The position numbers and the translations under genes were made by a program. From positions 2,030 through 66,029 of the IMG/VR virus record IMGVR_UViG_3300047322_000561: DNA of 64,000 nucleotides; one strand, given 5' to 3'. The DNA comes from a virus. Lineage: Duplodnaviria; Caudoviricetes. Positions 25,175 to 52,446 of this stretch are shown here, piece by piece (positions within the stretch are counted from its first letter, which is position 1; every line of letters begins with the position of its first letter). Under the pieces are notes generated by a model. That model ran no database searches, was not told the origin of the DNA, and was given only the letters and a program-made list of their open reading frames with translations.

Positions 25175-25330
25175 CATCCTCCCTGCCCCTTACGGGGCGG
25201 GGATTCCTGAGCCTCGCGACTCAAGCTTCTGCTTCGCAGCCGACCGCACCGCACCCCGGAGGGCACGTTGACTAACACCAGCTCCACAGACATTCGCACG
25301 GTCGCCCGTGCTCACCGCCAGCCCGGCGGC
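25150..25330 (-). ncRNA. TnpB omega/reRNA scaffold plus flank-derived guide (limits approximate)
   Basis: Established arrangement: RNA overlaps the tnpB 3' end and right-end hairpin; guide begins after TCAA, at 25170. Confidence 0.6.
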
Positions 25331-26440
25331 ACATATGTTCTTGGCAGCGTTGTGGTCGCGGTCGTGCTCTGCGCCGCAGCCCTCGCAGCGCCAGTTGCGC
25401 ACGCTGAGATCGAGACGCTCGAGCACGAGGCCACACGCGCTGCAGGTCTTGCTGCTCGGGAACCAGCGGTCGACTTTGACGAGCTCGCGCCCGTACCAGT
25501 CGCACTTGTACTCGAGCTGCCTCACGAGCTCCGACCAGCCGGCGTCGCTGATGCTGCGCGCGAGCGACCGATTGCGGACCATGCCCCTTACGTTGAGATC
25601 CTCGACTACGATCGCTTGGTTTTCGCGAACGAGTCGAGTGCTCAGCTTGGACAGGTGGTCCCTACGTCGGTCAGCCACATGAGCATGCAGACGCGCCAGC
25701 TTGCGCCGGGCTTTGTCTCGGTTGCGAGAGCCTTTCTTGGTTCGGGCGTAGCGCCGCGAGAGCACGCGCTTGCGTGCGAGCTCTCGGTTATCGTGGCGTG
25801 GGTTGACGATGTGCTCGCCGGTCGAGAGCGTGACGAGGATGTTCAGTCCGACGTCGATGCCGACCGCAGTCTTGAGCTTGGGCAGCTTCTTGATGCTCGG
25901 GTCGTCGCAGAGCATCGAGATGTGCCAGCGACCCGCGCCGTCGACGCTCACCGTCACCGTGGACGGCTCAGCGCCTTCGGGCAGCGGGCGCGACCAGCGA
26001 ATGTCGAGCGGCGCGTCCATCTTGGCCAGGTACAGCTGGCCGTCCCGCATGCGAAAGGCGCTGCGCGTATAGCTCGCGGAGCCGCCGCTGCGACGCTTCT
26101 TGAAACTCGGGTACTTGGCGCGCTTGGCGAAGAAGTTGGAGTACGCGGTCTGCAGGTGTCGCAGCGTCTGCTGCAACGGCACGCTCGACACCTCGTTGAG
26201 GAATGCCAAGTCGTCGGTCTTCTTCCATGCCGTCAGTTGTCGATCCTGCTCGGCGTATCCGACGTTCTTCTTTCCGCTAGTCCAGGCTTCGCTCCGCTGA
26301 TGCAGCGCCTTGTTGTAGACGAGGCGGCAGCACCCGAGAGTGCGGCGCAGCATCGACGCCTGCTCGGGAGTCGGCTCGAAGCGATAGCGGAAGGCCCGAA
26401 GCACGCTCACAGGATACGACGGCGCTCTGTAAGCGCAAGC
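25171..26440 (-). mobile_element. IS200/IS605-family (IS1341-type) element, tnpB only
   Basis: Right end on minus strand GGAATCCCCGCCCCGTAAGGGGCAGGGAGGATGTCAA; no tnpA; left boundary approximate. Confidence 0.8.
25190..26410 (-). CDS. tnpB: RNA-guided endonuclease TnpB
   Basis: AFRYRFEPTPEQ..LGCCRLVYN, GIDVG, VEDL, CSAC/CEGC zinc finger, DRDHNAAKNI; D-E-D triad intact. Confidence 0.96.
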   Translation of the reverse strand: MSVLRAFRYRFEPTPEQASMLRRTLGCCRLVYNKALHQRSEAWTSGKKNVGYAEQDRQLTAWKKTDDLAFLNEVSSVPLQQTLRHLQTAYSNFFAKRAKYPSFKKRRSGGSASYTRSAFRMRDGQLYLAKMDAPLDIRWSRPLPEGAEPSTVTVSVDGAGRWHISMLCDDPSIKKLPKLKTAVGIDVGLNILVTLSTGEHIVNPRHDNRELARKRVLSRRYARTKKGSRNRDKARRKLARLHAHVADRRRDHLSKLSTRLVRENQAIVVEDLNVRGMVRNRSLARSISDAGWSELVRQLEYKCDWYGRELVKVDRWFPSSKTCSACGLVLERLDLSVRNWRCEGCGAEHDRDHNAAKNICAAGLAVSTGDRANVCGAGVSQRALRGAVRSAAKQKLESRGSGIPAP

Positions 26441-26715: not shown

Positions 26716-26802
26716 GGGTTTCCCGAAGCACCGGGTCGCACCGGCAGAGAGCGCCCTCCCCTCTGCGGGAAATGGGAGGGCAACTTGAAAGGGCACGCAA
26801 GC

Positions 26803-27252
26803 GTGAGGCACGAAGACTTCGAGACGCGTCGCGCGCTGTACGCCTCGAGCGGTGTGCTGCTCGACTCCGAGCACGGGCGGGTGCGGGTGGTCGAGCCGTT
26901 CGACCGGCCCGTCGTCGCGCTGGGCGCCGTGAGCGCGTGCGCGGTGCGCATCGACCTGACGCTGTGCCTGCGCGCCGTGCGGAACGAGCTCGGGCCTGCG
27001 CCGTGCGCCTGGTGCAAGCGGTCGCGCGGCTGGCTCTACTGTCGCGAGCACGAGTTCGCCGAGGCGCTCGAGCGTGCCGCGCGCTGCGTGACCGACCAGG
27101 GCCGCGCCTGGGACTGGGCGTATGCACTCGGGTACCGCCACTCCGATGCGCGCTACGCGTCAGGTCACTGGACGGGCGAGCCGGCAGCCTACGTGCGGGG
27201 CTGCAGCGATGACGCGGGCGACTACGCGCGCGCTGTCTGGGAGCTGCTCTGA
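26803..27252 (+). CDS. hypothetical protein with Cys motif
   Basis: CAWC..CREH; GTG after AAGGG. Confidence 0.55.
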   Translation: MRHEDFETRRALYASSGVLLDSEHGRVRVVEPFDRPVVALGAVSACAVRIDLTLCLRAVRNELGPAPCAWCKRSRGWLYCREHEFAEALERAARCVTDQGRAWDWAYALGYRHSDARYASGHWTGEPAAYVRGCSDDAGDYARAVWELL

Positions 27253-27254
27253 GC

Positions 27255-27572
27255 ATGGCCTTCCGCGACCTCAAAGCCATCGGCGAGATGTTCCACGAGC
27301 TCAGCCAGGGGGCGCTCGAGCAGGCGCACTACGACGCGTACCAGCGCAAGCTCGCTTATAAGCGCGAGTGGTACCGGTTCAATCGACAGCGCGTCTGCGC
27401 TCATCAGCACAGGTACTACCGCGCCAACAAGCCGCGCATCAACGCCTACGACCAGGCGCGCAAGAACACCGACTTTGCGCGCGCGCGACGTCGACAGCGC
27501 TACCGCGCCGACCGCGAGCGCATCCTCGCGAGCCAGCGTGCGCGCTACCAGAAACAAAGGACCCGACCATGA
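27255..27572 (+). CDS. basic Arg/Tyr-rich helical protein
   Basis: Repeated R.YY.AN-type pattern. Confidence 0.6.
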   Translation: MAFRDLKAIGEMFHELSQGALEQAHYDAYQRKLAYKREWYRFNRQRVCAHQHRYYRANKPRINAYDQARKNTDFARARRRQRYRADRERILASQRARYQKQRTRP

Positions 27573-27727
27573 ACAGTCATCTTTACGAGTGGAGTCTCTT
27601 CGCGTTCTGCACGACGGTGCTCGCGATCTACTTCGGCCTTCCGCAGCCGCTCGGGCGCGCGGTCGCCGCGGTGTTCTGGTTTCTGATGCTGCTGTGCCTG
27701 ATCTTCAGAAAGCAGCTGGACTCATGA
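27569..27727 (+). CDS. small two-TM membrane protein
   Basis: 52 aa, two hydrophobic stretches, overlap-coupled on both sides. Confidence 0.55.
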   Translation: MNSHLYEWSLFAFCTTVLAIYFGLPQPLGRAVAAVFWFLMLLCLIFRKQLDS

Positions 27728-28995
27728 GCAGGGCCGCAGCGCGCAAGCAGGAGCCCGAGCAGCAACTCGTCGTCGTGTACCGACCGCTGGCAGACTTGAT
27801 CCCCTACGCTCGCAATTCGCGCGTGCACAGTGATGCGCAAATCGCCCAAATCGCAGCGTCGATCAGGGAGTTCTCGTTCACCAACCCGGTGCTGACCGAC
27901 GAGCTCGGCGGCATCATCGCGGGGCATGGGCGCGTGCTGGCCGCGCGGCAGCTGGGGCTTGAGCAGGTGCCGTGCATCATGCTCGTCGGCCTCTCCGAGG
28001 TGCAGAAGCGGGCGTACGTCATCGCGGACAACAAGCTCGCGCTCAACGCTGGCTGGGACGAGGAGCTGCTCGCGGTCGAGCTGCAAGGGCTCGCAGACGA
28101 CGGCTTCGACTTTGCGCTGACGGGCTTCGACCAGGGCGAGCTCGACGCGCTGCTCAAGCAGGTGGCGCCCGACCAGCCTGACCCGAGCGACGACAGCGAC
28201 GACGTGCCCGAGCCGCCCAAGAACCCGGTCACCAAGCCAGGCGACGTCTGGCAGCTCGGGCGGCACCTGCTCGTCTGCGGCGATGCGACCGACGCTGCGA
28301 CCTGGCGCAAGCTGCCGATCGTCGACGCAGTGTTCACGTCCCCGCCGTATGCGCTGGGAATATACGCAGGCAAACTGCGGGCGCCGAACGGAACTGGCGA
28401 TCTACGCAGCGCATATCCAGACTTCGAGGACACGCCTGAACAATGGCCAGCAATGATGCACTCGTTCACGACCCACGCGCTGGAGCGCGCCTCTCTCTTG
28501 GCGGTGAACGTGCAGAGCTTGGCCGGCAACAAGCGAGCGCTCCTGCGCTGGGCGGCGCACTTCGCCGACCACCTCGTCGACCTCGCAGTGTGGGTCAAGG
28601 ACAACAGCCAGCCGGCCATGAACCCGGGCGTGCTCAACAGCCTGTTCGAGCTGCTCTACCTGTACGGGCCCAGCGGCTCGACGCGTGCGCTACCGTTCGC
28701 GGACTTTCGAGGCACAGTGACGAACGTGTACAACGGCCCGGCAGCGCGCGCGTCCGACAAGGTCAGCGACGAGCACGGCGCAGTCTTTCCGATGCACTTG
28801 CCGACGTTCGTCATGCGCGACCTGGCGAGCCAGGCCAAGACCTGGATCGACTGCTTCGCGGGCACGGGCACGAGCATCAGCTGCGCCGAGCAGCTGGGCC
28901 GCACGTGCCACGGCATCGAACTGTCGCCTGCGTACTGCGACGTAATAGTTCAGCGCTGGGAGACGCTTACCGGGCTGCAGGCAACGCGCGGCTGA
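27724..28995 (+). CDS. ParB-like domain + amino-methyltransferase (beta class, probably m4C)
   Basis: LIPYARNSRVH..IIAGHGR..ADNKL; TSPPY motif IV; DCFAGTGT motif I; GIELSPAYCDVI. Confidence 0.92.
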   Translation: MSRAAARKQEPEQQLVVVYRPLADLIPYARNSRVHSDAQIAQIAASIREFSFTNPVLTDELGGIIAGHGRVLAARQLGLEQVPCIMLVGLSEVQKRAYVIADNKLALNAGWDEELLAVELQGLADDGFDFALTGFDQGELDALLKQVAPDQPDPSDDSDDVPEPPKNPVTKPGDVWQLGRHLLVCGDATDAATWRKLPIVDAVFTSPPYALGIYAGKLRAPNGTGDLRSAYPDFEDTPEQWPAMMHSFTTHALERASLLAVNVQSLAGNKRALLRWAAHFADHLVDLAVWVKDNSQPAMNPGVLNSLFELLYLYGPSGSTRALPFADFRGTVTNVYNGPAARASDKVSDEHGAVFPMHLPTFVMRDLASQAKTWIDCFAGTGTSISCAEQLGRTCHGIELSPAYCDVIVQRWETLTGLQATRG

Positions 28996-31678: not shown

Positions 31679-31903
31679 CTATTGCGCGGCGTCGTGCGCG
31701 CGAACTGCATGCCTGCGCGCGAGCAGCTGCAGCGCGGCGCGAATGATCTCGCCCTCGCTGCTGTCGAGCTTCGCGCAAAGCTTGGCGAGCAGCTTCTCGT
31801 CGTCCGGGTACAGGCGCACGCTGATGCGCCGCACTGCGCGCTGCTCAGGCGGCAACGCCGGCCGACCTACTGCGCCAGCTTTGTGAAGACTCTTTTTGGT
31901 CAA
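31679..31903 (-). CDS. RHH protein 4
   Basis: VGRPALP..ISVRLYPDD...L..LCAKL..S..EIIRAAL. Confidence 0.75.
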   Translation of the reverse strand: MTKKSLHKAGAVGRPALPPEQRAVRRISVRLYPDDEKLLAKLCAKLDSSEGEIIRAALQLLARRHAVRAHDAAQ

Positions 31904-32135: not shown

Positions 32136-32630
32136 TCAGTCCGCATCGTCCCAGACCGGCACGACTTGCAGCTCGTCCCGTTTGAGCCCGTGCCGGCGTG
32201 CAACTCCGTCCAATTCCCGTTCGGCCTCAGCGCGCGTGTCATAGCGCAAGTCCTTGAGCAGCCCGCGCGCGGGCTCCCAGTCCTGTCGACTCTCATTCCA
32301 GCGCTGCCATGTGAACCTCGCGCCGAGCTCGAGCTCGCGCGAGCGGCGGGTCGCTAGCTCGCGCATGCGCTCGCCGAAGCCATCGATGCTGTCCGCGTAC
32401 GTGCCGCCCGGCGCGCGGCCGATCATCGCGATCACTGTCAGGGCCGCAGGCAGGCGCACGTGATCAAACTGCCACAAGTCGTTCAGGTGAAAGCCTCCGA
32501 GCTCGGAGGCATTCCACCAGCTGCACAAGAGACGCCGCATGCGCAGGCCCGTACTGCTGTGGCCCTCGGCCATCTCGAAGACGACATCGAGCGCGCGCAG
32601 CTCGGCGTCGGTGGGAATGAACTTGGCCAT
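32136..32630 (-). CDS. hypothetical protein
   Basis: LLCSWWNA..GGFHL.DLW..D motif. Confidence 0.65.
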   Translation of the reverse strand: MAKFIPTDAELRALDVVFEMAEGHSSTGLRMRRLLCSWWNASELGGFHLNDLWQFDHVRLPAALTVIAMIGRAPGGTYADSIDGFGERMRELATRRSRELELGARFTWQRWNESRQDWEPARGLLKDLRYDTRAEAERELDGVARRHGLKRDELQVVPVWDDAD

Positions 32631-32631
32631 G

Positions 32632-32781
32632 TTAGACCTGGCACTCCCCGTCGCGATGCGTGCGCGCGCTGTGGCCGCAGTGCGGACACACGTAGTCGTC
32701 GTCGGGCGGATCGGGCGGCAGGTCTGGCCAGTGCGGCACGAGGCGCTTGTCGTTCGGCACTTCGTGAAACGGGTTGTCCAT
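32632..32781 (-). CDS. 49-aa Cys/His protein
   Basis: MDNPF..CPHCGH...H...C; abuts next gene. Confidence 0.5.
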   Translation of the reverse strand: MDNPFHEVPNDKRLVPHWPDLPPDPPDDDYVCPHCGHSARTHRDGECQV

Positions 32782-32807
32782 CGGGCGGGGGGCCATTGCG
32801 TTGAGCA

Positions 32808-33056
32808 TCAGCTTGTCTCCTCAGGTTGGCATACCTCGATCGGCTCGAGCTTCGCCCAGCGTCGAGCGCAGCGCGCGCACGTGACGAGCGGCGCCTCGTA
32901 CTCTGACCAGCCTGCGCTGCGTCGGCCAGGCTTAGCGCCGCACAGCGCCGACCAGTTCGCGCCCTGCACTGCATGCGCGACCCTACCCGTGTCGCGCTCG
33001 GCGCCGTTGGCGCAGCGACCGAGCAGTCTACGAGGGGCGATTGCGTTCTTGACCAT
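32808..33056 (-). CDS. small Cys-containing protein
   Basis: HAV..ALCG..VTCARC. Confidence 0.6.
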   Translation of the reverse strand: MVKNAIAPRRLLGRCANGAERDTGRVAHAVQGANWSALCGAKPGRRSAGWSEYEAPLVTCARCARRWAKLEPIEVCQPEETS

Positions 33057-34006
33057 CAGCTTGCTTTCGCCTTCCGCGCCACGATCCGGCGCCCGAGCTC
33101 ATGCACAGCAATGCACAGCTGCCCGTACCGGTCAGCGTCGCCCACGCTGCTGTCGCGCAGCCCGCGCAGCGTCGCGAACTGCAGCTCGAGCTCAGCGAGC
33201 GACCCCGGCGCCGGCGTGTCTGGCGCCGGCCTGATCGAGCGCAGCCCCGGCCCCGCCTTCGCCATCGTGCGCATCGTGCCGAGCACGTACCCGGCAGGGT
33301 TGGGAACCTGCGCGGCTGAGCGTCTGAGAAGCGCAGCGAGGGCGGGCGCAGCGACGTGCGCCAGCTGCTGCCCTTCCCGCTTCTGCAAGAGCTGCCAGAC
33401 CTGGCCGTAGTGCGGCCAGCCCCAGCGCGCGCAGACGAGCTCGAGGGGGCTGCCACGCACGGGCTCTGGGACATTCTCGGGCTCGGGAAATTTCAAACCT
33501 CTGCCAACAGCCGCGAGCGCAGCTCGGTCCTCGGGCGTCAGGTCATCCACAGGCGGGCAGTTATCCACAGGGCTCACGCGCGCAGCAACAGTCTCCTCTG
33601 GGATCTCTTTCTGTTGGTTGCTCACGACGCTGCGCCCCCTAGTCATCGTGACGTGGGCAGGCGCCAGGTCGACGACGAGCTCGCGCTCGAGCGCTTCGAA
33701 CGCAAGCACCGCGTACGAGTTCGCCGTCTGCGAGTGGTCCTCGTCCTCGCGGAAGCACGGCTTGCTCGCGATGTAGCCGGCGCGCTCAAGGGCCTTGGTC
33801 GCGCGGTAGGACGTCGAGGGGCTGAACCCGCTGAGCTCGCCAAGGTCTGCATGCGAGACGACGGCGCCGCCCTCCCCGCCGTCGTCGAGCGCGTACAGGG
33901 TGATCAGCGCCATGCGCTCGGCAGCGCTCGAGCCGGGCGGCAGGTAGCCCCAGAGCTGTCGCAGCTGGGCTTTGAACAGGCGCTGCGCGCGCAGGCGCTC
34001 AGCCAT
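33056..34006 (-). CDS. winged-HTH replication initiator (candidate plasmid-state Rep)
   Basis: SHADLGELSGFSPSTSYRATKALERAGYI..N.Y HTH; internal DnaA boxes (PVDN); NPAGY motif. Confidence 0.7.
   Translation of the reverse strand: MAERLRAQRLFKAQLRQLWGYLPPGSSAAERMALITLYALDDGGEGGAVVSHADLGELSGFSPSTSYRATKALERAGYIASKPCFREDEDHSQTANSYAVLAFEALERELVVDLAPAHVTMTRGRSVVSNQQKEIPEETVAARVSPVDNCPPVDDLTPEDRAALAAVGRGLKFPEPENVPEPVRGSPLELVCARWGWPHYGQVWQLLQKREGQQLAHVAAPALAALLRRSAAQVPNPAGYVLGTMRTMAKAGPGLRSIRPAPDTPAPGSLAELELQFATLRGLRDSSVGDADRYGQLCIAVHELGRRIVARKAKAS
33543..33569 (+). promoter_or_regulatory. two DnaA boxes (candidate origin)
   Basis: TCATCCACA 33543-33551 and consensus TTATCCACA 33561-33569. Confidence 0.7.
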
Positions 34007-34469
34007 GGCGCGCCTCGACGATCTGCTCGAAGCGAGCAGCGTGCTCAAGCTCCACACATCTGAGCCGAGCGTGACAGTCCCGGCAGAGCGTGACTCCATT
34101 GCGGCGGTCGAGCGCGCGCTCAGGGTACGCAGCCTGCGGGTAGATGTGATGAGCTTCCAGCTCGCGCTGCGCACCGCAGTCTACGCAGCGATGGCCGTCG
34201 AGCTTGAACACGGCACGCTTCCAGCCCTTCAGCTTCGGAGTACGCCTTGGTGCTGCTCTCTCAGCAGAGCACAGGCAAACGCCCTTGGCAGGTCGCTGCA
34301 GCAGACCTGTCATCTGCAGCGTGATGAGCGCCAGCTGCGTTTTCTCGTGGCTGATAGCGGCTTCGCGTTGGAGTTCTTGTTGCCACGCAGTCACGAGCGG
34401 GAAGCGGTCGCGTAGCGCGAGAAGCTCCGCAATGCGCAGAGCGTTAGCGTCGCTGGTCTTGGCCTTCAC
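33999..34469 (-). CDS. HNH endonuclease (start uncertain)
   Basis: WKRAVF.LD...CVDCG....LEAHHI......N.VTLCRDCH. Confidence 0.85.
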   Translation of the reverse strand: MKAKTSDANALRIAELLALRDRFPLVTAWQQELQREAAISHEKTQLALITLQMTGLLQRPAKGVCLCSAERAAPRRTPKLKGWKRAVFKLDGHRCVDCGAQRELEAHHIYPQAAYPERALDRRNGVTLCRDCHARLRCVELEHAARFEQIVEARHG

Positions 34470-34547
34470 CTGTGCGAGCCACACTGCTCGGGTGTCGACC
34501 GCGATGCGGCGATCGGACGTAGCGCCAACTTGGGACGCGACAAATCC

Positions 34548-34576
34548 TTGCGCGGTGTGGTCGTCGCTGATAGTTT
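34548..34576 (+). promoter_or_regulatory. sigma70-type promoter of counter-transcript
   Basis: TTGCGC-N17-TAGTTT with extended TG. Confidence 0.6.
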
Positions 34577-34582
34577 CTGCGG

Positions 34583-34670
34583 GTCGAGGGCGCACGTCGC
34601 TCCTCCTCAAGCGCCTCGTTTTCCTCCTCTGCCGCCAAAGCGAAAAGGGAAACGGGGCGTTCGGCTTTTA
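34583..34670 (+). ncRNA. candidate antisense copy-control RNA
   Basis: 15-bp stem 34611-34625/34646-34660 (with G-U pairs), CGCCAA in loop, short U-tract; antisense to the rep operon leader. Confidence 0.6.
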
Positions 34671-34920
34671 ACGGTCTGGGTTCGGCGGCCGGGCAGCAGC
34701 AGCGCAGCGCGGTCACATGACGCGCATACAACGACCTCGTGCGGCAGGCGCCAAGTTTCTGTCAGACACGCCGCCGGAATCCGATTTCCAGCGCTCTTTT
34801 ACAGCACGGCTGCGCGCGAAAGCGCACGCGGAGGCGATCCGTCTGCCGCGATAGGCGATCGCATCGCGTCGCAAGGAAGCGTGGCGATTGCGGCACGTTG
34901 CGAGCGCGTCGGCAGCTTTC

Positions 34921-35014
34921 TTGCGAACCTATTCCGGCTCCGGTATAGGTCGACGACGGCTCCATCCTGGAGCCTGAACGGAGCCAGTGGCCAGTATGGA
35001 GCCAATGCAGAGCC
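34921..35014 (+). promoter_or_regulatory. parA promoter with RGAGCC operator/centromere array 1
   Basis: TTGCGA-N17-TATAGG; GGCTCC at 34936 and 34958; RGAGCC at 34969, 34980, 34998, 35009. Confidence 0.7.
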
Positions 35015-35763
35015 AAGGAGTCCCCGAGATATGGCTCGTGGGCGGAGACAAGGGCGGCGCGGGCAAGAGCACCTTCGCAGCCATGATCGCGGCAGCCATC
35101 GGCACAGTGCGAAAGCAGCCCGTGACGATCATCGACACGGACGTGCTGACCAAGGACGTGAGCATGTGGCTGGGCACGCGCCTGCGCGACTGGCCGAACC
35201 TGCCGGCCATCGTCGGCAGGTTCGAGACCGAGGAGGTTGCGACGCGAGCTTGCGAGGAGCGGGACAAGGGGCGCTTCGTTGTCATCGATGTCGGCGGGCG
35301 CGACTCCGAGCAGATGCGCGTCGCGATGAGCGTGGCCGACGTGCTGCTCATGCCGATCCAGCCCAGCCAGTTTGACCTCTTCAGCTGCAAGCGCATGACC
35401 AAGCGCGTCGCTGAGGTCCGGCGTTGGAACCCCAAGCTGCGTGCCTGGTTCTTCATCAACCGCGCGGACACCAAGGCTCAGCTCGCGCACCTGGCCGAGG
35501 AGGCGCACGAGCTCTGCAGCAGCTTCGGCCCCACCGTGCTCACGGCTGACGCCGTCATCCATCAGCGCGTTGGCTTCGCCTACGCAGCGCGCGACGGGCT
35601 CGGCATCCTCGAGGTCAAGAACGCGCACCAGGCCGCCGACGAGTTCTGGGCGCTCATGCTCGAGGTCGCCCCTGAGCTTGCTGAGCTCGACGACGCGCCG
35701 CTGCGTAGAGCCAACGTGAAGCCGATACAGAGCCACACTGGAGCCGAGGTAGAGCCGTCATGA
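34987..35763 (+). CDS. parA: ParA partition ATPase (short, type Ib-like)
   Basis: Deviant Walker A KGGAGKST, IIDTD, VVIDVGG, ADVLLMPIQPSQFD; no N-terminal HTH. Confidence 0.92.
   Translation: MASMEPMQSQGVPEIWLVGGDKGGAGKSTFAAMIAAAIGTVRKQPVTIIDTDVLTKDVSMWLGTRLRDWPNLPAIVGRFETEEVATRACEERDKGRFVVIDVGGRDSEQMRVAMSVADVLLMPIQPSQFDLFSCKRMTKRVAEVRRWNPKLRAWFFINRADTKAQLAHLAEEAHELCSSFGPTVLTADAVIHQRVGFAYAARDGLGILEVKNAHQAADEFWALMLEVAPELAELDDAPLRRANVKPIQSHTGAEVEPS
35707..35756 (+). repeat. centromere-like array 2: five RGAGCC-like units at 11-bp period
   Basis: Units start 35707, 35718 (GAAGCC), 35729, 35740, 35751. Confidence 0.85.
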
Positions 35764-36104
35764 CGCCAGCACGCAAAGCCTTCCAGACAGAGGTAGAGCT
35801 GCCTTCCGAGGGCACACCGGAGTCGCTTGCGGAGTGGACGAGCGCTGCGCCTGAGTCGACGCGCAAGCCCAAGCTGACCCCGAAGCCGTGGGCGCGCTTC
35901 GACAAGCACGCAGAGTCGAAGATCACGTTCAACCTGCGGCTCAACGACTACGAGCGCGAGCTGCTCGACGCAGCCGCGAAGCTAGGCAGCCGCTCGATGC
36001 AGAGGGAAGCCAAGCGCATTCTCATCGCCGGCCTCGAGAAGGCACTGCGCGGAGCCAAAGCGGAGCCGTCTCAGAGCCACACCGGAGCCGAGGAGGAGCC
36101 GTGA
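35760..36104 (+). CDS. RHH centromere-binding partner of ParA
   Basis: Disordered N-terminus then PW..ITFNLRLNDYERELL; overlap-coupled to parA. Confidence 0.75.
   Translation: MTPARKAFQTEVELPSEGTPESLAEWTSAAPESTRKPKLTPKPWARFDKHAESKITFNLRLNDYERELLDAAAKLGSRSMQREAKRILIAGLEKALRGAKAEPSQSHTGAEEEP
36051..36100 (+). repeat. centromere-like array 3: five RGAGCC units at 11-bp period
   Basis: Units start 36051, 36062, 36073, 36084, 36095. Confidence 0.88.
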
Positions 36105-36361
36105 CGAGTAACAGGCTGTCTCGCTCTGCGCCGGACATCGACCTTGCGCGCGTGCGCGAGGTCGCGGCGCTCGCCAAGACCAAGAGCATCACCGGCGCGT
36201 GCGTCGAGTGCCGCGCCGAGCTCGCGCCGCGCGAGCGCTTTCTCGAGTGGGTCGTGCTCGAGCTGCTCGAGCAGCGCCCCGCAGACATGCTCGAGCGCCT
36301 GCGCGACCTGGCTGAGTTTCGATGCGTGGCGTGCAGCGCCAAGACGGGAAGGGGCGCCTGA
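36101..36361 (+). CDS. small zinc-finger-like protein
   Basis: CVEC..CVAC. Confidence 0.6.
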   Translation: MTSNRLSRSAPDIDLARVREVAALAKTKSITGACVECRAELAPRERFLEWVVLELLEQRPADMLERLRDLAEFRCVACSAKTGRGA

Positions 36362-36363
36362 CG

Positions 36364-36753
36364 ATGCCTAACCCCGACCCCCACCGCGAGCTCGCCACGC
36401 TCGAGACCTGCGACACGTACCTCGAGTTCGGCGTCTGCACGTGCTGGCCGAAGTGCGAGCCGACGACTGCGCCGGACCCGCTCGCCGCAGTCAAACACCG
36501 CATCGCCGAGCTGCGCGGCCTGGTCTTCGGCATCAGCAGCGATGCGCTCGCCAAGCTGCCCGAGCTCGAGCGCCGGCTCATCACCGAGACGCGCGCGCAC
36601 CTGGCGGAGTACGACCGCGCCGAGCGCACCGCTGGCGTCTGCAGGTGCGGGCACACGACGGCCGACCATCGCAACAACGACTGGAGCAGCTGCCAGTTCA
36701 AGGGCTGCGACTGCGCAGGCTTCTTGGCGCGAGGGGAGGGCGGTCATGGCTGA
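36364..36753 (+). CDS. hypothetical Cys-rich protein
   Basis: CRCGH...H....C....C.C..F. Confidence 0.6.
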   Translation: MPNPDPHRELATLETCDTYLEFGVCTCWPKCEPTTAPDPLAAVKHRIAELRGLVFGISSDALAKLPELERRLITETRAHLAEYDRAERTAGVCRCGHTTADHRNNDWSSCQFKGCDCAGFLARGEGGHG

Positions 36754-37465
36754 GACCATCAAGCTGCCGCCCGCGTTCCCTCTCTGCTGGCCGGACGACT
36801 GGCCGCGCACCGAGCCGCGCATTCGTGGCCTCGTGCCGAGCAGCGCGCGCGCTGCGGGCGGCACCGGCAACTTCCGGATGACAGCTGGACGCGCCTACGA
36901 CGAGCTTGCGCACGAGCTCGACAACTGGGCCAGCATCGCGTTCCGGCCCAACCAGACGCCGTCGCGCCGCCTGTTCGTGGTCACCTCGAACGTAGTCAGC
37001 AAGCTCGCCGGCCGGCCCGTGAGCGAGGGGCGAAGCACGCGCAACCGCAACGACGATCCTGGCGTGGCGGTCTGGTGGATCGTGCGCGACGTCGCGGGCC
37101 TCAGCCTGCGCGTGGTCGCGTGCGACACGTGGTCGACGGTCGCGCAGAACCTCCGCGCGTGCGGCGTGGTCATCGAGTCGCTGCGCGCGATGGAGCGAGC
37201 GGGTGCAAGCCAGGCGATGGCGCGCACTGAAGCGGGCTTTGTGCCGGTCGGGCTGCCAGCGCCGCGGGCTTGGTGGCGCGAGCTGCTCGACCTGCCTGCG
37301 GACTTCACAGCTGTCGAGGTCGAGCGCGCCTATAAGAAGGCGGCGCTGCGAGCGCACCCGGATCAAGGCGGCTCGGACGAATCGTTCATCGAACTCACGC
37401 GCGCACGCGAGACCGCGCTCCGGTACGCGTCTGCGCCGAGCGCGTCGGCCGGAGGATGCTCATGA
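36746..37465 (+). CDS. phage protein with C-terminal DnaJ (J) domain
   Basis: PLCWPDDWPRT, DPGVAVWW, ACD.W; AYKKAALRAHPDQGGS. Confidence 0.85.
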   Translation: MAETIKLPPAFPLCWPDDWPRTEPRIRGLVPSSARAAGGTGNFRMTAGRAYDELAHELDNWASIAFRPNQTPSRRLFVVTSNVVSKLAGRPVSEGRSTRNRNDDPGVAVWWIVRDVAGLSLRVVACDTWSTVAQNLRACGVVIESLRAMERAGASQAMARTEAGFVPVGLPAPRAWWRELLDLPADFTAVEVERAYKKAALRAHPDQGGSDESFIELTRARETALRYASAPSASAGGCS

Positions 37466-37689
37466 CGACCATCCTCACGCAGGCGGGCGCCGAAGCGCTG
37501 CTGACGCAGCTCGAGCAGGCGCGGGCGCGCATCGTCGAGCTCGAGCAGCAGCTCGCTGAGCTCAAGGTTGCCCACCGCAAAGAGCTCAACGAGCTGCACC
37601 GCGAGCACGCGCGCGACCTGCACGACGCCTGCGCGCAGGCGCGCGACGACGCAGCGTGGGACGCGCGAGAGCGGGAAGGGGGCTACTGA
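37462..37689 (+). CDS. coiled-coil hypothetical protein
   Basis: GGAGG RBS; overlap-coupled. Confidence 0.55.
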   Translation: MTTILTQAGAEALLTQLEQARARIVELEQQLAELKVAHRKELNELHREHARDLHDACAQARDDAAWDAREREGGY

Positions 37690-38333
37690 TGCGAACCGAG
37701 TACCTGCTCGAGCCCAAAGAGAAGGTCGAGCGCTGGGGTCCGGGCATCTGGACCGACGAGCCGGACGAGGCCGAGTGGGTGCACGAGGAGACGGGCCTGC
37801 CGTGCATGGTCCTGCGCAACCTCGATCTCGGCACGCTCTGCGGCTACGTCGGCGTGCACGAGACGCACCCCTGGCATGGCAAGCCCTACGACGAGCCCGA
37901 CGTATCCGTGCACGGCGGGCTCACGTTCTGCGGGCTGTACGACGACACCGGCATCACCTGGGTAAAGCCTGCGAGCGTGCTGTCTGCAGAACGCACGAGC
38001 ACGCTCGGCGCCAAGCCTGACGCGTCGTACGTCGGGCACTGGTTCGTCGGCTTTGACTGCGGGCACGCGGGCGACCTCCTGCCGCAGCTGCGCACGCTCA
38101 TCGAGAGTCGCGCGCGCGAGCCGCTGTTCATCGCGTCGCGCCTGCCGCAGACGCTCGAGGACGCAGCCTGGAGCGCGGGTCTCGACGCTGCCGAGCGCAG
38201 GCGCTGGCTCAAGAAGCTGCGCGACCCGATGGAGCGCTACCTGATCGACGTCTATCGCGACTTCGTCTGGGTGCGACAGGAAGTCGAGGAGCTCGCGCGA
38301 CAGGCCGGAGCTGCAGCACCGAGGCGCACGTGA
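37689..38333 (+). CDS. phage hypothetical protein
   Basis: LCGYVGV..HP..VHGGLT..WFVGFDCGHAGD. Confidence 0.75.
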   Translation: MRTEYLLEPKEKVERWGPGIWTDEPDEAEWVHEETGLPCMVLRNLDLGTLCGYVGVHETHPWHGKPYDEPDVSVHGGLTFCGLYDDTGITWVKPASVLSAERTSTLGAKPDASYVGHWFVGFDCGHAGDLLPQLRTLIESRAREPLFIASRLPQTLEDAAWSAGLDAAERRRWLKKLRDPMERYLIDVYRDFVWVRQEVEELARQAGAAAPRRT

Positions 38334-38422
38334 CCTGGCCCGAGGCGTTCTTCGGCAGCGTCTGCGTCGTCGTCTGCGCGGTGCTGTGCTGGAAGTTCTT
38401 CTCAGCCATCAACAGGTGGTGA
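38330..38422 (+). CDS. 30-aa membrane peptide
   Basis: MTWPEAFFGSVCVVVCAVLCWKFFSAINRW; GTGA overlap. Confidence 0.5.
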   Translation: MTWPEAFFGSVCVVVCAVLCWKFFSAINRW

Positions 38423-38721
38423 CAAAAAAATCGCGCGACTGCGCCGCGCAGGATGTGACAGGCTCGGCGCGAGGCGGGCTCAGCACGCGCCGCAGACGCA
38501 GCGCGCCAATCCCCCGGCGATGCGTGTCTTCCCCGGACCCTTCGTCTGCACCGCGCACCATGCTGAGCCCGCTTCGTTTTCGTCTGACATTTTTTCGATC
38601 GGGTGTTATCACCCGTGTGTACGCGCCCCCTCGCGTACGCCTTTGGGGAAGGGTTTTCCGTCATGACGTTCCTACTTGGTAGCGTTGCAACGCGCTGCAA
38701 TCGCCGCTGTCTGGTGCAGCC

Positions 38722-39588
38722 GTGACGCCGGGCAAGCACGTGCTGATAGCGCGCTCGCCGACGCACGCAGAGACCGCGCAGCGCGTGCTCAACACGCCGG
38801 GCCTGGTCACGCGGCTTGCAGACAACTGCGTCGCAGCGTCGCCCACGCTCAGCAACCTGTCCGTGAGCGCGCAGCAGGTCGCGTTCGCCGAGCTGCGCGA
38901 CCTCATCCAGGCCGAGCTCGAGCGCATCGCGAAGGCCGGCCCGCACTTCCCGGAGCCCAAGTGACGACCTGTCCCAAGTGCGATCAGACGCTGTGCCCGA
39001 AGTGCGGCGCGCACGCTGAGTCGGGCTACGGCGTTGCGTTCGGGGGCGGCCTGGGCTCCTACGAGTGGTGCGCGAGCAGCGGGTGCGAGTGGTACGAAAA
39101 GCGCCACGACCGCGAGGACGAGCCGGAAGTGACCGCAGAGCTGGAGACGCCATGACGATGGACGGAACAGGCAGCAAGTACGACGCTGAGTGCGCGCTCT
39201 TGCGCGCTATTACAGGCGCGCAGACCTCGTGCGCGATCGTCATCAACGGCGTGCGCGGCACGGGCTTCTCGCTGTCGACGACCGACCCGCGCCACGTCGC
39301 GCTGACCGCGAGCGTGCTGCGCGACGTGGCCGACCAGCTCGAGGCAGACGCGCGAAAGCTCGCCCAATGACGCGGCCCGCCGAGCGTTACATGCACACGC
39401 AGGTCGCCGTCACGCAGGATGTGCGCGGCGTGTACGGCGTCGAGATGCGGATCGAGCAGCCGGACGGCCTACGCGAGACGCTGCACGCGGGCGTGTTCGC
39501 GACGCGCGAGGAGGCGGTCGCGTTCGCCGACGTGCTGCACGCGCGGTGCTGCGAGCTCGAGCGCGCCAACAAGGGGCGCGCGTCGTGA
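38722..39588 (+). other. four coupled small hypothetical CDS (38722-38964, 38961-39155, 39152-39370, 39367-39588)
   Basis: Chain of RTGA stop/start overlaps. Confidence 0.6.
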
Positions 39589-40208
39589 AGCCCGCCCAGG
39601 AGCGCAGGCGCCAGCGCGTGCACCTGCACCAGTACCTCGGCGAGCTCATCGCCCAGGTCGACGCCGCGCACGAAAAGGCCGACCTGCTGCCCGAGGCAGA
39701 GGGCATGGCGGTGCAGTGCGTCGAGAGCTGCGCGCACGCGACCGCAGGCTGCTGCTCGCTCATCGTGATCACGGAGGTCACCGAGGCCGAGTACATCGTT
39801 GCGCGCAACGGGAAGGCGGTCGACGCAGCGCTTCCTGTGCTGCTCGCGCAGCACGAGCGCCTCGAGCGCGAGCTGCCTTTCGAGCCGCCGGAGATGTTCG
39901 AGGACCGCGAAGTCGAGCGCTACGTCGCAGCCAGGTACCACGCGCTGCGCATGCCGTGCGCGTTCCTGGACGACGCGCGGCGCTGCACCATCTACCGCGA
40001 TCGGCCGCTCGCGTGCCGCACGCACTTCGTGGTGAGCGACCCGGCGCTGTGCTCGAGCGACGTCCCGGAGGCCGACCACGCTGCGCTCGACAAAGGCACG
40101 CGCACTGCTGCACCGGCGTACCTCGCGCGCGAGGTCGCGCGCACGCGCGGAACGCTCGGCTTCGGCACGCTCGCGCAATGCGTGCTCGAAGTGCTGAGCC
40201 GGTCATGA
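39585..40208 (+). CDS. YkgJ-family cysteine-cluster protein
   Basis: C...C......CC and CAFL....CTIY..RP.ACR. Confidence 0.85.
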   Translation: MKPAQERRRQRVHLHQYLGELIAQVDAAHEKADLLPEAEGMAVQCVESCAHATAGCCSLIVITEVTEAEYIVARNGKAVDAALPVLLAQHERLERELPFEPPEMFEDREVERYVAARYHALRMPCAFLDDARRCTIYRDRPLACRTHFVVSDPALCSSDVPEADHAALDKGTRTAAPAYLAREVARTRGTLGFGTLAQCVLEVLSRS

Positions 40209-42122
40209 GCATCCACGTGATCACGCTGCGCCCGGCCGAGCCTGCCGCCGAGACGCTCGTGCTGCTGGCGCGCGCGCACCGGCGCTGGTGCCGCATCGAC
40301 TACGGGCTAATGGGCGTGCTGGGCGTGCTGGGGCTGATGCAGCTGGCCGCGCTGGGGCTGCGCCACGCCTGGCTACTCGGGCCGAGCCGGCTGTCTGTGA
40401 CGAGCTTGTGCCTGCTCGCGGGGCTTGGCGTCTCGACGTGGACTGCGCGCCAGCGCCGCCGCGCGTTCGATGCGCTGGTCGACGCGCACAACGACGCGAT
40501 GAACGCAGAGTTTCTGCGCGTGACCGGCGAGAGCTGCGCGCTGCGCGGCGTGCACCGCGTCATGCGCGACCAGGAGGACGGATGAAGACAGACGAACCAC
40601 CAGACGGCTACGTCGAGGCTATCCAGGCAATGGGCAACGCCGGCAAAGCATGGGTGCGCGAGCACCCGTTCGCGTGCTTGGTGCTCAACCCTGTCGACCC
40701 GGACAAGCTGCCCGTCGACGAGCCCACGCGTGTTCACCTGCGTGCGCTGCTCAGAAGCGACCCGCATGCGAAGGTCGGCGTCATCGGCAGTCTGCGCGAC
40801 TCCATCGAATGGTGGGCCGGCAACGAGCCGACGCGCGACTTGCTGAGCGCGATGGACCGCGCAGCAGGTGCCAGGCGCCCGACGTACCAGATGGCCGAGT
40901 GCGCGCTCGAGCTGTTCGTCTTTCCGAAGCAGGAGGCCACCTCGTGACCGACAAGACGCCACACGAGCCGTCGATACGCGTCACGCCTGACGGCAAGGGC
41001 GTGGTCATCGACGAGTTCGACGAGTTCGCGACAGCGCTCATCGGGATACCGCCCGACGACTTCAACGAGACGGCCGGCCACGCGCAGAAGCTGCTGCAGG
41101 CAGCGCTCGCAGTCGTGTACAACAAGCCCGAGCTCGAGCCGCCGACCGACGCGCAGAGCGAGCGCGTGCGCGACATCCTCTTGCTCGCAGCGTTCGCGGC
41201 GAGTCAGGAGCTGCTGAGCAAGCGCGGCGAAAACCCGCTCGCGTTCATCCAGCGCGCCAAGCAGGTCGTCGCCTGGACCAAGCGTCCGATCGCCATCGCC
41301 ACGACGCTCGAGGAGCTGAAAAACAAGGCGCAGGAGATCGCCCGCCAGGTCGCGCGCCGGCTGTTCCCGAACGAGGGGTTCGTGCTGCTGGTGTTCAACG
41401 AGGAGGCGCCGGGGCACGTCACGTGGATGACGAGCACGACGCGCGCAGCGGCGATCGAGGAGCTCGAGAAGTCGCTCGCGAGCATCAAGGCGGACCTGCG
41501 CGCGCGCAAGGCGACGTCGTCGTGAGCGGCAGACCCTACGTGGCAGCGCTCAAAGCCGTGCAGGAGCTGTCCGAGCTCCCGACAGCCGCGCTGGCAGAAC
41601 TGCGCCATGTCGTGCTCGACCTGGGCATGGTCAGCGAGGACGAGCCCGACGTCGCGCGCGCGTGCGTGCTCGTCGCAGTGCTGCTGCAGGACCTCATCGA
41701 CAGCGACGCGCGCGTGCGCGAGGAGTTGCGGCGATGAGCGCGCGGCAAAGGAGCTTCGTGCTGGTGATGAGCGTCGAGGGCGACGCGTTCGACGCGGACT
41801 GCCCGACAGCCGAGGTGCGGCGTGTACTGCTGCGCGTGGCGACGAGCATGCTCGCGGACCCGGACAAGCTCTCGGGCGTGTGCCGCACGTCCAGGCAGAC
41901 GCTGGCCGGCACGTGGGCCGTGCGGGATGTCGAGCGATGAGCGACCGCAGCATAGGCGAAGGGCTCACCGAGCTGTCTGCCGGGGTCATGATCGGCGCTG
42001 CAGCCGCCGCCTTCTTTCTGAGCATGGCGCAGTGCGAGAGCGCCGGAAAGGCGCACAACGCGCGTCGCTACGAGGCGTGCATGCGCGCGACGTCGTCTGT
42101 TGCGCAGTGTGGCAAGCCATGA
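40205..42122 (+). other. six coupled hypothetical CDS (40205-40585 membrane, 40582-40947, 40944-41525, 41522-41737, 41734-41940, 41937-42122 membrane)
   Basis: RTGA overlaps and RBSs. Confidence 0.6.
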
Positions 42123-42166
42123 GACGCGCGTCAGCGCCCTGCCCCAAACTGGGACTGAGGGCTGGG

Positions 42167-42191
42167 GTCCGATACTATAAGAGTATGGGAC
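42167..42191. promoter_or_regulatory. candidate lox-like recombination site/operator
   Basis: GTCCGATACT-ATAAG-AGTATGGGAC inverted repeat (9/10) just upstream of the recombinase. Confidence 0.5.
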
Positions 42192-42215
42192 GTGAACAGC
42201 TGAAGGAGTTTGTAG

Positions 42216-43280
42216 ATGAGCGATGAGCTAGTCCGGGTTGACACCGCCATGCAGCGCGCCTCGTTTGCTGCGCATGCCGAGCGCGCGCACGAGTTCGCCA
42301 AGCGCAGTCGCGCAGACAACACGCGCAGGGCGTACGAAGTGCAGTGGGAGCAGTTTGCAGACTGGTGCGCCGCGCAGGGGGTTGAGGCGCTGCCGTGTCA
42401 ACCCCTGACGCTTGCCTCGTACATCGCCGCGCGCGCATTGGATCGCCGCGAGGATAAGCCCGTGCGCAAGGGGCGGACTGAGCGCGGCACCAAAGTCTTG
42501 TTCGCGACGCTCTCGCAAGCGCTCACGGCCATCAACAACAAGCACGTGGCGCACGGTTACGAGCGACCGCGCTCGTTCTTAGCCGTGCAGACGACGCTCG
42601 AGGGCATCAAGCGCACGCTCGGCATCGAGCCTACGCGCAAGGCGCCCGTGCTCGCCGAGACGCTCAGCAGAATGGTCGAGGTGCTGCCTAATACGCTCGG
42701 CGGCGCGCGCGACCGGGCGCTGCTCCTGGTGGGATTTCTCGGCGCTTTTCGACGCTCTGAGCTTGTCTCGCTCGAGGTGTCAGACCTGACGTTTAGCAGG
42801 GCGGACGGACTCGTCGTGCGCTTGCGCAAGAGCAAGACCGACCAGCACAAGGTAGGTCGCTCCATTGCACTGGCAAAGCAGGTCGACGCGGACGTCTGCC
42901 CTATGCGCGCGACGCAAGCGTGGCTCGAGCGCGCAGGCATTGCTGACGGCCTCGTGTTTCGTAGCGTCGACAGGCACGGCAACCTCGGCGCATCGCTCGG
43001 CGCCAAAGACGTCGCGCGCGTCGTCAAGCGCACCGCAGCTGCAGCCGGCATCGACACGGCAGACCTGGCCGGGCATTCGCTGCGCGCGGGACTCGCCACG
43101 GAGGCTGCCCAGCAGGGCGCGCGCGCGACTCAGATCATGAAACAGACCGGGCATACGAACGTCGAGATGGTCTCGCGCTACATACGCGAGGCCGAACTGT
43201 TCAAGGACAACGTCACGACAGGGATGATGAGGAGCGCTCGCCGGGCAGTCGAGAACAACGCAACCGGAGAGCGCACGTGA
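42216..43280 (+). CDS. Cre-like tyrosine recombinase
   Basis: NTRRAY..W..F..WC, RDRALL..G.FRRSEL, KSKTDQ, CP, GHSLRAG, GH, RYIR. Confidence 0.93.
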   Translation: MSDELVRVDTAMQRASFAAHAERAHEFAKRSRADNTRRAYEVQWEQFADWCAAQGVEALPCQPLTLASYIAARALDRREDKPVRKGRTERGTKVLFATLSQALTAINNKHVAHGYERPRSFLAVQTTLEGIKRTLGIEPTRKAPVLAETLSRMVEVLPNTLGGARDRALLLVGFLGAFRRSELVSLEVSDLTFSRADGLVVRLRKSKTDQHKVGRSIALAKQVDADVCPMRATQAWLERAGIADGLVFRSVDRHGNLGASLGAKDVARVVKRTAAAAGIDTADLAGHSLRAGLATEAAQQGARATQIMKQTGHTNVEMVSRYIREAELFKDNVTTGMMRSARRAVENNATGERT

Positions 43281-51991: not shown

Positions 51992-52446
51992 ACAACAGGG
52001 GCGCCAGCATGCCGGTCGTCGTCTACCTCGCGGGCGCGTGCGCCGAGCTCGAGCGCATCCGCAAGTGGGCCGGCGCTGTCTCGCGCTCGCGCTCGCTGGT
52101 GCTCGCGGACCGCTGGTTTGATAGCGCAGCGCAGGCGCCCGAGGCAGGCTCGCTCTCGCACGCGCAGGCGCTCGACGTGCTGCACCAATACCGGGCGCTG
52201 CGCAGTGCGCGCGTCTTCTGGCTGCTCTGGCCGACCGAGCACGAGCACGACGCGTCTGTCTCGTTCGGCTACGCGCTCGCGCAGCGCTTTCACACCGACC
52301 AGAGGTTCGCGATCATCGTGAGCGGTCTGTGCGCTGCGCGCACCGCGCTCACGTCGCTTGCGGACTTCCGCAGCGACTCGGACGCGCTCGGCTTTGACGC
52401 CGTGCTGGCGCTCGCGCAGACGCGCGCCGCGGAGAGCGCGCGATGA
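51988..52446 (+). CDS. nucleoside 2-deoxyribosyltransferase-like fold protein (degenerate)
   Basis: VYLAG..RW..A.V.WLL.P..SFGYALA..IIVSG. Confidence 0.5.
   Translation: MNNRGASMPVVVYLAGACAELERIRKWAGAVSRSRSLVLADRWFDSAAQAPEAGSLSHAQALDVLHQYRALRSARVFWLLWPTEHEHDASVSFGYALAQRFHTDQRFAIIVSGLCAARTALTSLADFRSDSDALGFDAVLALAQTRAAESAR

Follow-up and report, generated by a model that had tools for sequence, protein, structure and literature searches.

A candidate plasmid-maintenance cassette with exchangeable replication and partition genes in a contractile-tailed soil phage

We analysed a 64,000-nt window, bases 2030–66029 of a single 66,029-nt virus contig (IMGVR_UViG_3300047322_000561), and found that the genes and repeats at 33.0–36.1 kb probably form a plasmid-maintenance cassette, which would keep a temperate soil phage with a contractile tail in its host as a low-copy circular plasmid. 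More tentatively, and with somewhat less than even confidence, we propose that this phage belongs to an undescribed soil phage-plasmid lineage. Such a lineage would combine exchangeable replication/partition (rep/par) incompatibility alleles, each with its own 8-, 9- or 11-nt box code lying partly in the 3′ codons of partition genes, with a rare winged helix-turn-helix (wHTH) initiator whose DnaA-box origin lies in its linker, and with a lambda O-like lytic initiator. An initial annotation of this DNA had already read it as a phage-plasmid. The variability of the cassette, the plasmid-type relatives of the recombinase and the circularity of related genomes speak for this reading; however, we still infer the plasmid state, and two components of the original proposal, an antisense-RNA-like leader hairpin and a myxobacterial host, were not supported. 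Positions below are those of the window unless another contig is named.

The partition operon comprises the following features.

34936–35014, no strand: box array A, two inverted (GGCTCC) boxes followed by four direct RRAGCC boxes over the ribosome site and start of parA
34987–35763, (+) strand: gene for a small Walker-type ParA of at most 258 amino acids (aa), phrog_164, with the deviant Walker A motif GGDKGGAGKS
35707–35756, (+) strand: box array B, a run of five RRAGCC boxes with an exact 11-nt period, within the final parA codons
35760–36104, (+) strand: gene for a 114-aa ribbon-helix-helix (RHH)-like protein with a long N-terminal tail, the probable ParA partner (G+C at third codon positions, GC3, of 0.82; weak matches)
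36051–36100, (+) strand: box array C, a second run of five RRAGCC boxes with an exact 11-nt period, within the final codons of the RHH gene

ParA matched phrog_164 (3.7e-30) and several ParA/MinD-type models, and its match to NF041546 ParA_partition (8.9e-34, 116.8 bits) fell below the equivalog cutoff of 180. Its Pfam matches are to ATPase families only, without an extra N-terminal DNA-binding domain. The database search that had been suggested for ParA returned at least 5000 plasmid records by tblastn (best identity 35.3%), and the phage records matched numbered 133. Among phages, the closest ParA proteins are those of Burkholderia phage KS14 (33.7%), a plasmid prophage, and of SSU5-like phage-plasmids (~30%), all at low identity; the portal protein is also distantly similar to that of SSU5 (25%). 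Within the 114-aa protein, the segment KITFNLRL-NDYERELLDAAAKLG-SMQREAKRILIAGLEKAL can be read by eye as strand-helix-helix, and no known RHH family gave a significant sequence match. We consider this protein the probable centromere-binding partner of ParA, and array A a probable operator and centromere.

The boxes themselves are the most distinctive feature of the operon. Triple RRAGCC boxes at 11-nt spacing occur six times in the 64 kb, all within 35707–35756 and 36051–36100, and shuffled sequences (n = 100) gave none. That the arrays are coding or compositional accidents, and the gene set a chance neighbourhood, is hardly credible to us. Such an explanation could point to the location of arrays B and C within coding sequence, in a 63-nt duplicate (repeat D2, 79% identity) that gives both proteins similar tails; however, 11 nt cannot be divided into whole codons, the shuffles contain no match, and two relatives have equivalent arrays, with other motifs and periods, at the corresponding boundaries between genes. 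The duplicates, at 35701–35763 and 36045–36107, are in frame in both genes, and the shared tail reads ..QSHTGAE.EP.

Type Ib partition systems, such as ParF/ParG of TP228 and delta/omega of pSM19035, pair a small ParA with an RHH dimer bearing a flexible N-terminal tail, and their short repeat arrays double as operator and centromere. The operon described here is similar in that its ParA is small and lacks a DNA-binding domain, its putative partner is short and RHH-like, and its repeat arrays consist of short units; it differs from ParF/ParG and delta/omega in its box (RRAGCC), in the strict 11-nt phase of that box and in the placement of two of the three arrays within the 3′ codons of parA and of the RHH gene. 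Judged from its sequence, the partition part has the type Ib layout of small ParA, putative RHH protein and repeat arrays. The initial annotation had reported a divergent ParA and RHH operon with centromere-like arrays, which the ParA family matches and phased boxes bear out, with weak support for the RHH part. It had also declared both replicon and partition unassignable to any described family; this stands for the replicon, which is below every Rep threshold, but not for the partition part. We regard the partition system as well supported.

A search with the tail sheath protein identified five related viral contigs. Two of these, G002 (63,703 nt) and G005 (61,296 nt), have terminal repeats of 49 and 127 nt, respectively, and a rating of complete; every complete relative forms a closed circle. 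Compared gene by gene using blastp, the structural genes, Gam, Sak4, the second initiator at 52.4 kb and the recombinase are common to G002 and G005. The seven open reading frames (ORFs) called in 32136–37689 have no blastp match in either genome, whereas the flanking genes match; gene calling missed two genes here, and the HNH and DUF7673 genes of the leftward operon (see below) were recognised by eye in G002. At the same position both relatives encode a winged-helix protein, of 340 aa in G002 or ~427 aa in G005, with a C-terminal NPxGY-like motif, and its gene diverges from a different parA that is followed by a small RHH-like gene. ParA of G005 is 29% identical to that of the window, and ParA of G002 is unmatched at E 0.001. 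The winged-helix protein of G005 aligned colinearly with the family of the window's protein in hhalign (probability 69.8%, E 4.1e-05).

The box arrays have changed with the proteins. In G005, seven GTAC boxes at 9 nt precede parA and eight lie at the parA/RHH junction; these arrays contain all 11 triple-phased GTAC sites of the genome, and any such site was found in only 1 of 200 shuffles. In G002, arrays of CGCG type with an 8-nt period flank parA and form the two strongest lag-8 windows of the genome (z 7.1 and 6.2). Proteins and boxes thus change jointly while the layout is fixed, as expected of centromere/operator sites, their binding protein and incompatibility determinants. Together, the comparison suggests a phage that is conserved except for its rep/par cassette, which varies in the manner of an allele, and what we see looks like incompatibility-type diversification. 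In PMC7969092, phage-plasmids are described as having conserved phage genes and variable plasmid genes, and subgroup 1 of the P1 group as having two replicase families at one position.

The other half of the cassette is read leftward, away from parA.

33056–34006, (−) strand: gene for a 316-aa winged-helix protein, the candidate plasmid-state initiator (GC3, structure model, winged-helix matches)
33543–33569, (+) strand: two DnaA boxes, TCATCCACA at 33543 and TTATCCACA at 33561, 18 nt apart, a candidate origin element
33999–34610, (−) strand: wHTH-HNH endonuclease gene (PF01844), first of the leftward operon, with a probable GTG start at 34596
34611–34935, no strand: divergent control region, conserved in relatives though the flanking rep and par genes differ

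The first of these genes had been called as a 372-aa ORF starting at 34174. We corrected it to a 316-aa gene starting at Met57, at 34006, with a GC3 of 0.84 from Met57 onward; the preceding 55 codons are non-coding in composition. The protein opens with an HTH_36-like winged helix, which a disordered linker joins to a helical C-terminal domain bearing an NPxGY-like motif. Its AlphaFold model has a mean pLDDT (predicted local distance difference test) of 63, with the wHTH at residues 28–100 (73–82), the linker at 104–153 (25–33) and the helical domain at 187–250 (81–85). A fold search with this model gave winged-helix matches of up to Z 10.2 over residues ~11–110 and barely probed the C-terminal domain. 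The structure searches confirm the winged-helix fold of the protein and not its function.

This protein family is very rare, with four relatives in 5.8 billion proteins; the homologues P0003 and P0004, encoded on contigs of 19.5 and 30.7 kb, are 77% and 69% identical. No relative was found in viral_contigs or genome_contigs, and metagenome_contigs held a single 2.7-kb locus (L001). A profile search of 1.84 billion representatives gave 13 matches at E ≤ 0.001. Of ten distant matches scanned, four exceeded the cutoff of PF13730 HTH_36, one of which also exceeds the RepC N-terminal cutoff; weak side-matches to DnaD_N, Phage_rep_O and RepL were seen among these distant relatives, and the other six were uninformative. 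Neighbours of the protein in the Atlas are HTH_36 clusters (scores 0.95–0.96), some with RP-C, DnaD_N, RepA_N or RepL. The 316-aa protein itself reached 17.3 bits (E 0.0041) against PF13730, below the gathering cutoff of 25 bits, and a PDB sequence search with the family profile returned nothing under E 1.

The two DnaA boxes lie within the sequence encoding the disordered linker, where they specify the motif PVDNCPPVDD (PVDN..PVDD). Their number in the window is unremarkable (2 seen, 1.76 expected; 52 of 100 shuffles give at least two). Both boxes are, however, retained in the 58%-identical homologue of L001, where two were found against 0.10 expected and none of 200 shuffles reached two. The Asp codons in both boxes are GAT, which accounts for only 19 of 335 Asp codons over 11 genes, and codon identity to the L001 homologue peaks across the box stretch, at 0.83–1.0. 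The linker that carries the boxes is predicted to be disordered, yet it is invariant in the five-protein family alignment, and a DNA-level function may here masquerade as protein conservation. From the pairing of the boxes, their conservation in L001 and the rare GAT codons, we read this stretch as under DNA-level selection and as a candidate in-gene origin element of the wHTH gene.

Several observations on this protein weigh against our interpretation. Its fold matches are to generic winged-helix regulators of the MarR/CRP type; it reaches the curated threshold of no Rep family, all of its Pfam HTH matches being below cutoff; and tblastn against collections of plasmid and phage records, the search that had been proposed for Rep, gave no match. 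Iterons were not found near the wHTH gene, where there are scattered two-copy matches only. The DnaA boxes are absent from the counterparts in G002 and G005, each of which has one single-mismatch site elsewhere in the genome, and the hhalign comparison with the G002 counterpart was poor (probability 8.2%). On the partition side, the RHH call on the 114-aa protein rests on weak matches (DUF6290, E 0.072; CopG chain 7ak7, E 1.1). A circular assembly, finally, is also compatible with a circularly permuted virion genome.

Several of these points would suit a transcription factor, such as an immunity repressor or early regulator, with plasmid replication starting from the 52.4-kb initiator or from an unrecognised origin. 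We consider this an unlikely explanation, though one to be taken seriously: in structure the protein is most like MarR, CRP and further regulators, it varies between related phages beside a divergent promoter region as immunity repressors do, iterons are lacking near its gene, and its counterparts in relatives lack DnaA boxes. Set against this, the control region is conserved and the wHTH protein is not, so that the specific sites of the protein probably lie elsewhere; the DnaA boxes are retained as DNA between genes whose proteins are 58% identical; the distant relatives fall in HTH_36, with side-matches to RepC, DnaD, O and RepL; and in size, orientation and par linkage the gene agrees with the phage RepA genes described in PMC7157519. 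Architecture, position and DnaA boxes together make an initiator role for the 316-aa protein, in our estimate, roughly an even bet. The initial annotation's wHTH initiator with internal DnaA boxes thus keeps its winged-helix fold and its two boxes, but the protein is of 316 and not 372 aa, and it is the initiator role that we infer.

The stretch in which the antisense-RNA-like hairpin had been placed, in the leader of the initiator gene, proved to be the HNH gene. The PF01844 HNH match of its product is significant (2.6e-07, 31.1 bits, cutoff 21.4), and a homologue of the gene occupies the same place in G002. The candidate hairpin at 34175–34420 was rejected, as its fold is no better than that of shuffles (z = 0.36) and it has no Rfam match. 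The leftward operon continues with small genes, including those for a zinc-ribbon protein and a DUF7673 protein.

The intergenic region between the divergent operons is 376 nt long and contains the conserved control region. Alignment A4 of this region has a mean column identity of 65%, with shared blocks including GGGAAACGGGGCGTT and CCAAGTTTCTGTCAGAC. No covariation supporting an RNA was seen in it (covariation term +1.8), and a sigma-70 promoter scan of 33900–35100 returned 0 sites. The region is kept in three phages (window 34611–34935; L019 9560–9915; L015 12655–13030), with the genes on both sides replaced. Within it, GGGAAACGGGGCG recurs in inverted form ~90 nt away as CGCCAAGTTTCTG, and operators for a regulator common to these phages could lie here. 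Adjoining the variable cassette on its left, at 31679–31903 on the (−) strand and neighbouring positions, are genes for two small RHH-like proteins (..RVTVRLY.DDE..) that are conserved in all three phages (G002 34991–35489; G005 26758–27255); these proteins are candidates for shared regulators of the conserved control region.

We next consider the genome in which the cassette lies. The contig closes circularly: its first 120 nt or more are repeated from 65879, and the last ~25 nt then diverge. An independent contig, G001, which is 96–97% identical, spans the end-to-end junction, and a head-morphogenesis gene that includes a Hint-like segment stays in frame through it. The end repeat, the gene frame across the junction and G001 show that the genome is self-closing, without host flank. 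The proposed check for a circular contig was therefore positive, and the claim that no host junction is present was borne out by the overlap of the contig ends and by G001 reading across it.

PHROG matches include a major head protein, tail sheath (phrog_165), baseplate hubs and wedges, portal, head-morphogenesis protein and large terminase, as well as a Mu Gam-like protein and a Sak4-like protein. The sheath and baseplate genes identify a contractile-tailed phage, and the element carries phage virion and packaging genes as well as plasmid partition features (ParA and the phased arrays), both of which belong to the phage-plasmid screen of PMC7969092. The tail had been called Mu-like, which our analysis does not confirm: it shows a contractile tail (phrog_165, baseplate hubs) and a Mu Gam-like protein, but nothing more specific, and a MuA-type transposase was not among the 40 window proteins scanned in PHROGs. 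G+C is 64–70% along the whole window, in which neither tRNA genes nor Rfam families were found. Near-identical sequence is present in soil and rhizosphere metagenome runs. As to the host, nothing in our analysis supports a myxobacterium; the only genome-linked relative, an alphaproteobacterial metagenome-assembled genome (MAG), points to Alphaproteobacteria and not to Myxococcota.

A recombinase gene with a nearby palindrome lies to the right of the cassette.

42167–42191, no strand: imperfect palindrome with 10-nt arms and an AT-rich 5-nt centre, GTCCGATACT-ATAAG-AGTATGGGAC, 25 nt upstream of the recombinase gene
42216–43280, (+) strand: gene for a Cre/Xer-like two-domain tyrosine recombinase (PF00589), followed by an endonuclease VII-like gene

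The proposal of a Cre-like recombinase with an adjacent inverted repeat was upheld. The protein matches PF00589 (1.1e-18, 68 bits, cutoff 27.1), and among solved relatives Cre is best (8.9e-07), followed by Xer; the Cre alignment spans residues 96–327, including GHS-R and the terminal Y-containing stretch. It is 53–55% identical in the complete relatives G002 and G005, and tblastn with a limit of E ≤ 1e-8 returned 1896 plasmid records, small plasmids being frequent among them (best identity 43.9%), versus 6 phage records. The palindrome arms pair at 9 of 10 positions; a 9-7-9 arrangement can also be drawn, and a lox-type 13-8-13 arrangement is not present. Palindromes of other sequence occupy the equivalent place in G002 and G005. 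A resolvase role for the recombinase is plausible from these relationships, and the palindrome is a candidate dimer-resolution or circularisation site that would serve equally as an attP core or operator.

In an alternative reading the phage integrates, the recombinase being an integrase, the palindrome an attP core, and ParA/RHH either a regulator or a means of stabilising an excised or transient episome. We judge this to be improbable, at about one chance in four. A palindrome beside a recombinase gene could be the core of an attP just as readily as a site of lox type, and some phages with a similar ParA, such as phiE12-2 from the ParA match list, integrate. A portal profile searched against 185,579 species genomes found one relative, an 11-kb stretch ending a 296-kb alphaproteobacterial MAG contig (L022 1–11184; G006 contig 7, last 11 kb), which is colinear with 50.8–60.7 kb of the window and adjoins chromosomal-type host genes. 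In L001, the wHTH homologue at 462–1016 adjoins genes that, named by eye, we read as host metF and a truncated tlyA-like gene, the 3′ part of which is 250 nt away; this 2.7-kb contig has no par or phage genes.

Against this reading, the junction in the MAG corresponds to ~60.7 kb of the phage genome, 18 kb from the recombinase; the MAG lacks recombinase, sheath, capsid and Sak4 genes; its phage part is frameshift-ridden whereas the adjoining host ORFs are long; and the portal occurs in only 1 of 301 genomes of the MAG's order. From the frameshifts, the missing genes and the distant junction, the segment is a decayed remnant or a chimeric contig end, and we take it as a sign of chromosome contact, not of integration via this recombinase. 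The initial annotation had named relatives integrated via the recombinase as evidence that would count against it: what we found is one decayed MAG fragment beside host genes, but with its junction 18 kb away from that gene. The recombinase, moreover, has no arm-binding-type extra domain in Pfam, and its relatives are mostly on plasmid records, as above.

The palindrome gave no sign of hybrid sites either. Its half-site patterns match 1 and 14 viral contigs, all unrelated and of low G+C (33–42%), and these were set aside as chance. Contigs of runs X1 and X2 traverse 42167–42191 unbroken, and no joint at the palindrome was seen among the matches listed from contigs of four soil and rhizosphere runs, contigs being apt to drop rare forms. 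We continue to favour a plasmid maintained as a circle.

A second replication gene, annotated initially as a separate lytic-type Rep at 52.4 kb, was recovered.

52443–53375, (+) strand: gene for a lambda O-type initiator, with the probable lytic origin (phrog_2447, 1.4e-32)

Its inter-domain linker sequence contains (TCCCA)x6 at 52859–52888, followed by a palindrome at 52889–52913, and these in-gene repeats, with the phrog_2447 match, support the annotation. The versions in G002 and G005 have another N-terminal domain and another repeat (CAGGAT x5–7), with the same palindrome and C-terminal domain. Pfam Phage_rep_O matches neither this initiator nor the 316-aa protein. Like lambda O, the 52.4-kb initiator has repeats and a palindrome in its linker and a variable N-terminal and conserved C-terminal domain; unlike the 19-bp iterons of lambda O, its repeats are 5- or 6-nt, microsatellite-like units. 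By this analogy, the 52.4-kb region is the probable lytic origin, lying within the initiator gene. The DnaA boxes of the wHTH gene occupy the equivalent linker, and the analogy with lambda, whose ori lies inside the O gene, is also drawn in PMC7157519. As a separate observation, the initiator repeats co-vary with the N-terminal domain (G002 ~16.2 kb; G005 ~44.2 kb), and the palindrome GAGAGAGCGCGGGCGCTCTCTC is retained.

These parts can be assembled into a working model. The RHH-like protein would bind the phased RRAGCC boxes, with array A, over the parA start, serving to repress the operon and arrays A, B and C acting together as the centromere; the N-terminal tail of the protein would activate ParA, and sister copies would be separated as in type Ib partition. 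The 316-aa protein may initiate replication from an origin within the sequence that encodes it, helped by host DnaA at the two boxes. The Cre-like recombinase would act on the upstream palindrome to resolve plasmid dimers and may also circularise incoming DNA, and lytic replication would be driven by the O-like 52.4-kb initiator with its internal repeats. Related phages could exchange the whole rep/par cassette for other specificities, which would allow them to coexist in one cell.

The closest published analogues are phage-plasmid P1 and mycobacteriophages with RepA and parABS. The arrangement resembles that of P1 (RepA/oriR, ParAB-parS, Cre-lox, RepL/oriL) in that a candidate plasmid replicon adjoins the partition operon, a palindrome lies close to the gene for a Cre-type recombinase, and a second initiator gene contains its own probable origin. 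It differs from P1 in that the ParA partner is small and RHH-like, not an HTH ParB, and in that the wHTH protein has no plasmid or phage sequence match; the palindrome is 10-5-10, loxP being 13-8-13, and the virion genes are unrelated as far as seen.

A second comparison is with the RepA mycobacteriophages. According to Wetzel et al. 2020 (PMC7157519), these carry a 320–350-aa repA transcribed away from parABS, with the origin suspected upstream of or within repA. As in the Cluster A mycobacteriophages treated there, the candidate rep gene here is divergent and central, after the tail genes, and extra sets of centromere repeats lie beside genes. Those phages have ParB-type partition and have lost the integration cassette, whereas the phage studied here has an RHH-like partner and has kept a tyrosine recombinase (PMC7157519). 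They also differ in host phylum and virion type, and replication was tested there and is proposed here from sequence (PMC7157519).

Three phages that are alike save for the maintenance cassette amount to a natural experiment on how partition (protein, box motif and helical phase) and replicon specificity change jointly. In soil bacteria that are hard to work with, the cassettes are also candidates for low-copy replicons and mutually compatible stability modules. Most known phage-plasmids come from enterobacteria, Vibrio, Bacillus and mycobacteria, and to our knowledge high-G+C soil bacteria are hardly represented among them.

Some neighbouring genes are of additional note. The rightward operon continues after the RHH-like gene with the following gene.

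36101–36361, (+) strand: gene for a zinc-ribbon protein

A contig of run X4 omits exactly 36101–36359, the zinc-ribbon gene (depth 6.6, side 53), which shows that variants without that gene exist. Further along the par operon, the gene at 36542–37465, (+) strand, has a J-domain match of 25.4 bits, below the cutoff of 27.8, and matches phrog_9210; a DnaJ-like cofactor beside a replicon would be of interest. An IS-type transposase at 25190–26410, (−) strand (phrog_506, 5.4e-132), separates the tail genes from the early region; this is the only transposase seen, it has no counterpart in G002 or G005, and it is therefore probably a recent insertion there. At 27475–28995, (+) strand, a ParB-like N-terminal nuclease domain is fused to a DNA methyltransferase (phrog_498, phrog_620), outside the partition system. 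Finally, the MuF-like head-morphogenesis gene, which runs from 62644–63999 of the window into positions 1–650 of the contig, contains, exactly at the contig-end overlap, a Hint/intein-like segment with the ending ...VVHNC, and G001 deviates in both length and sequence at this segment.

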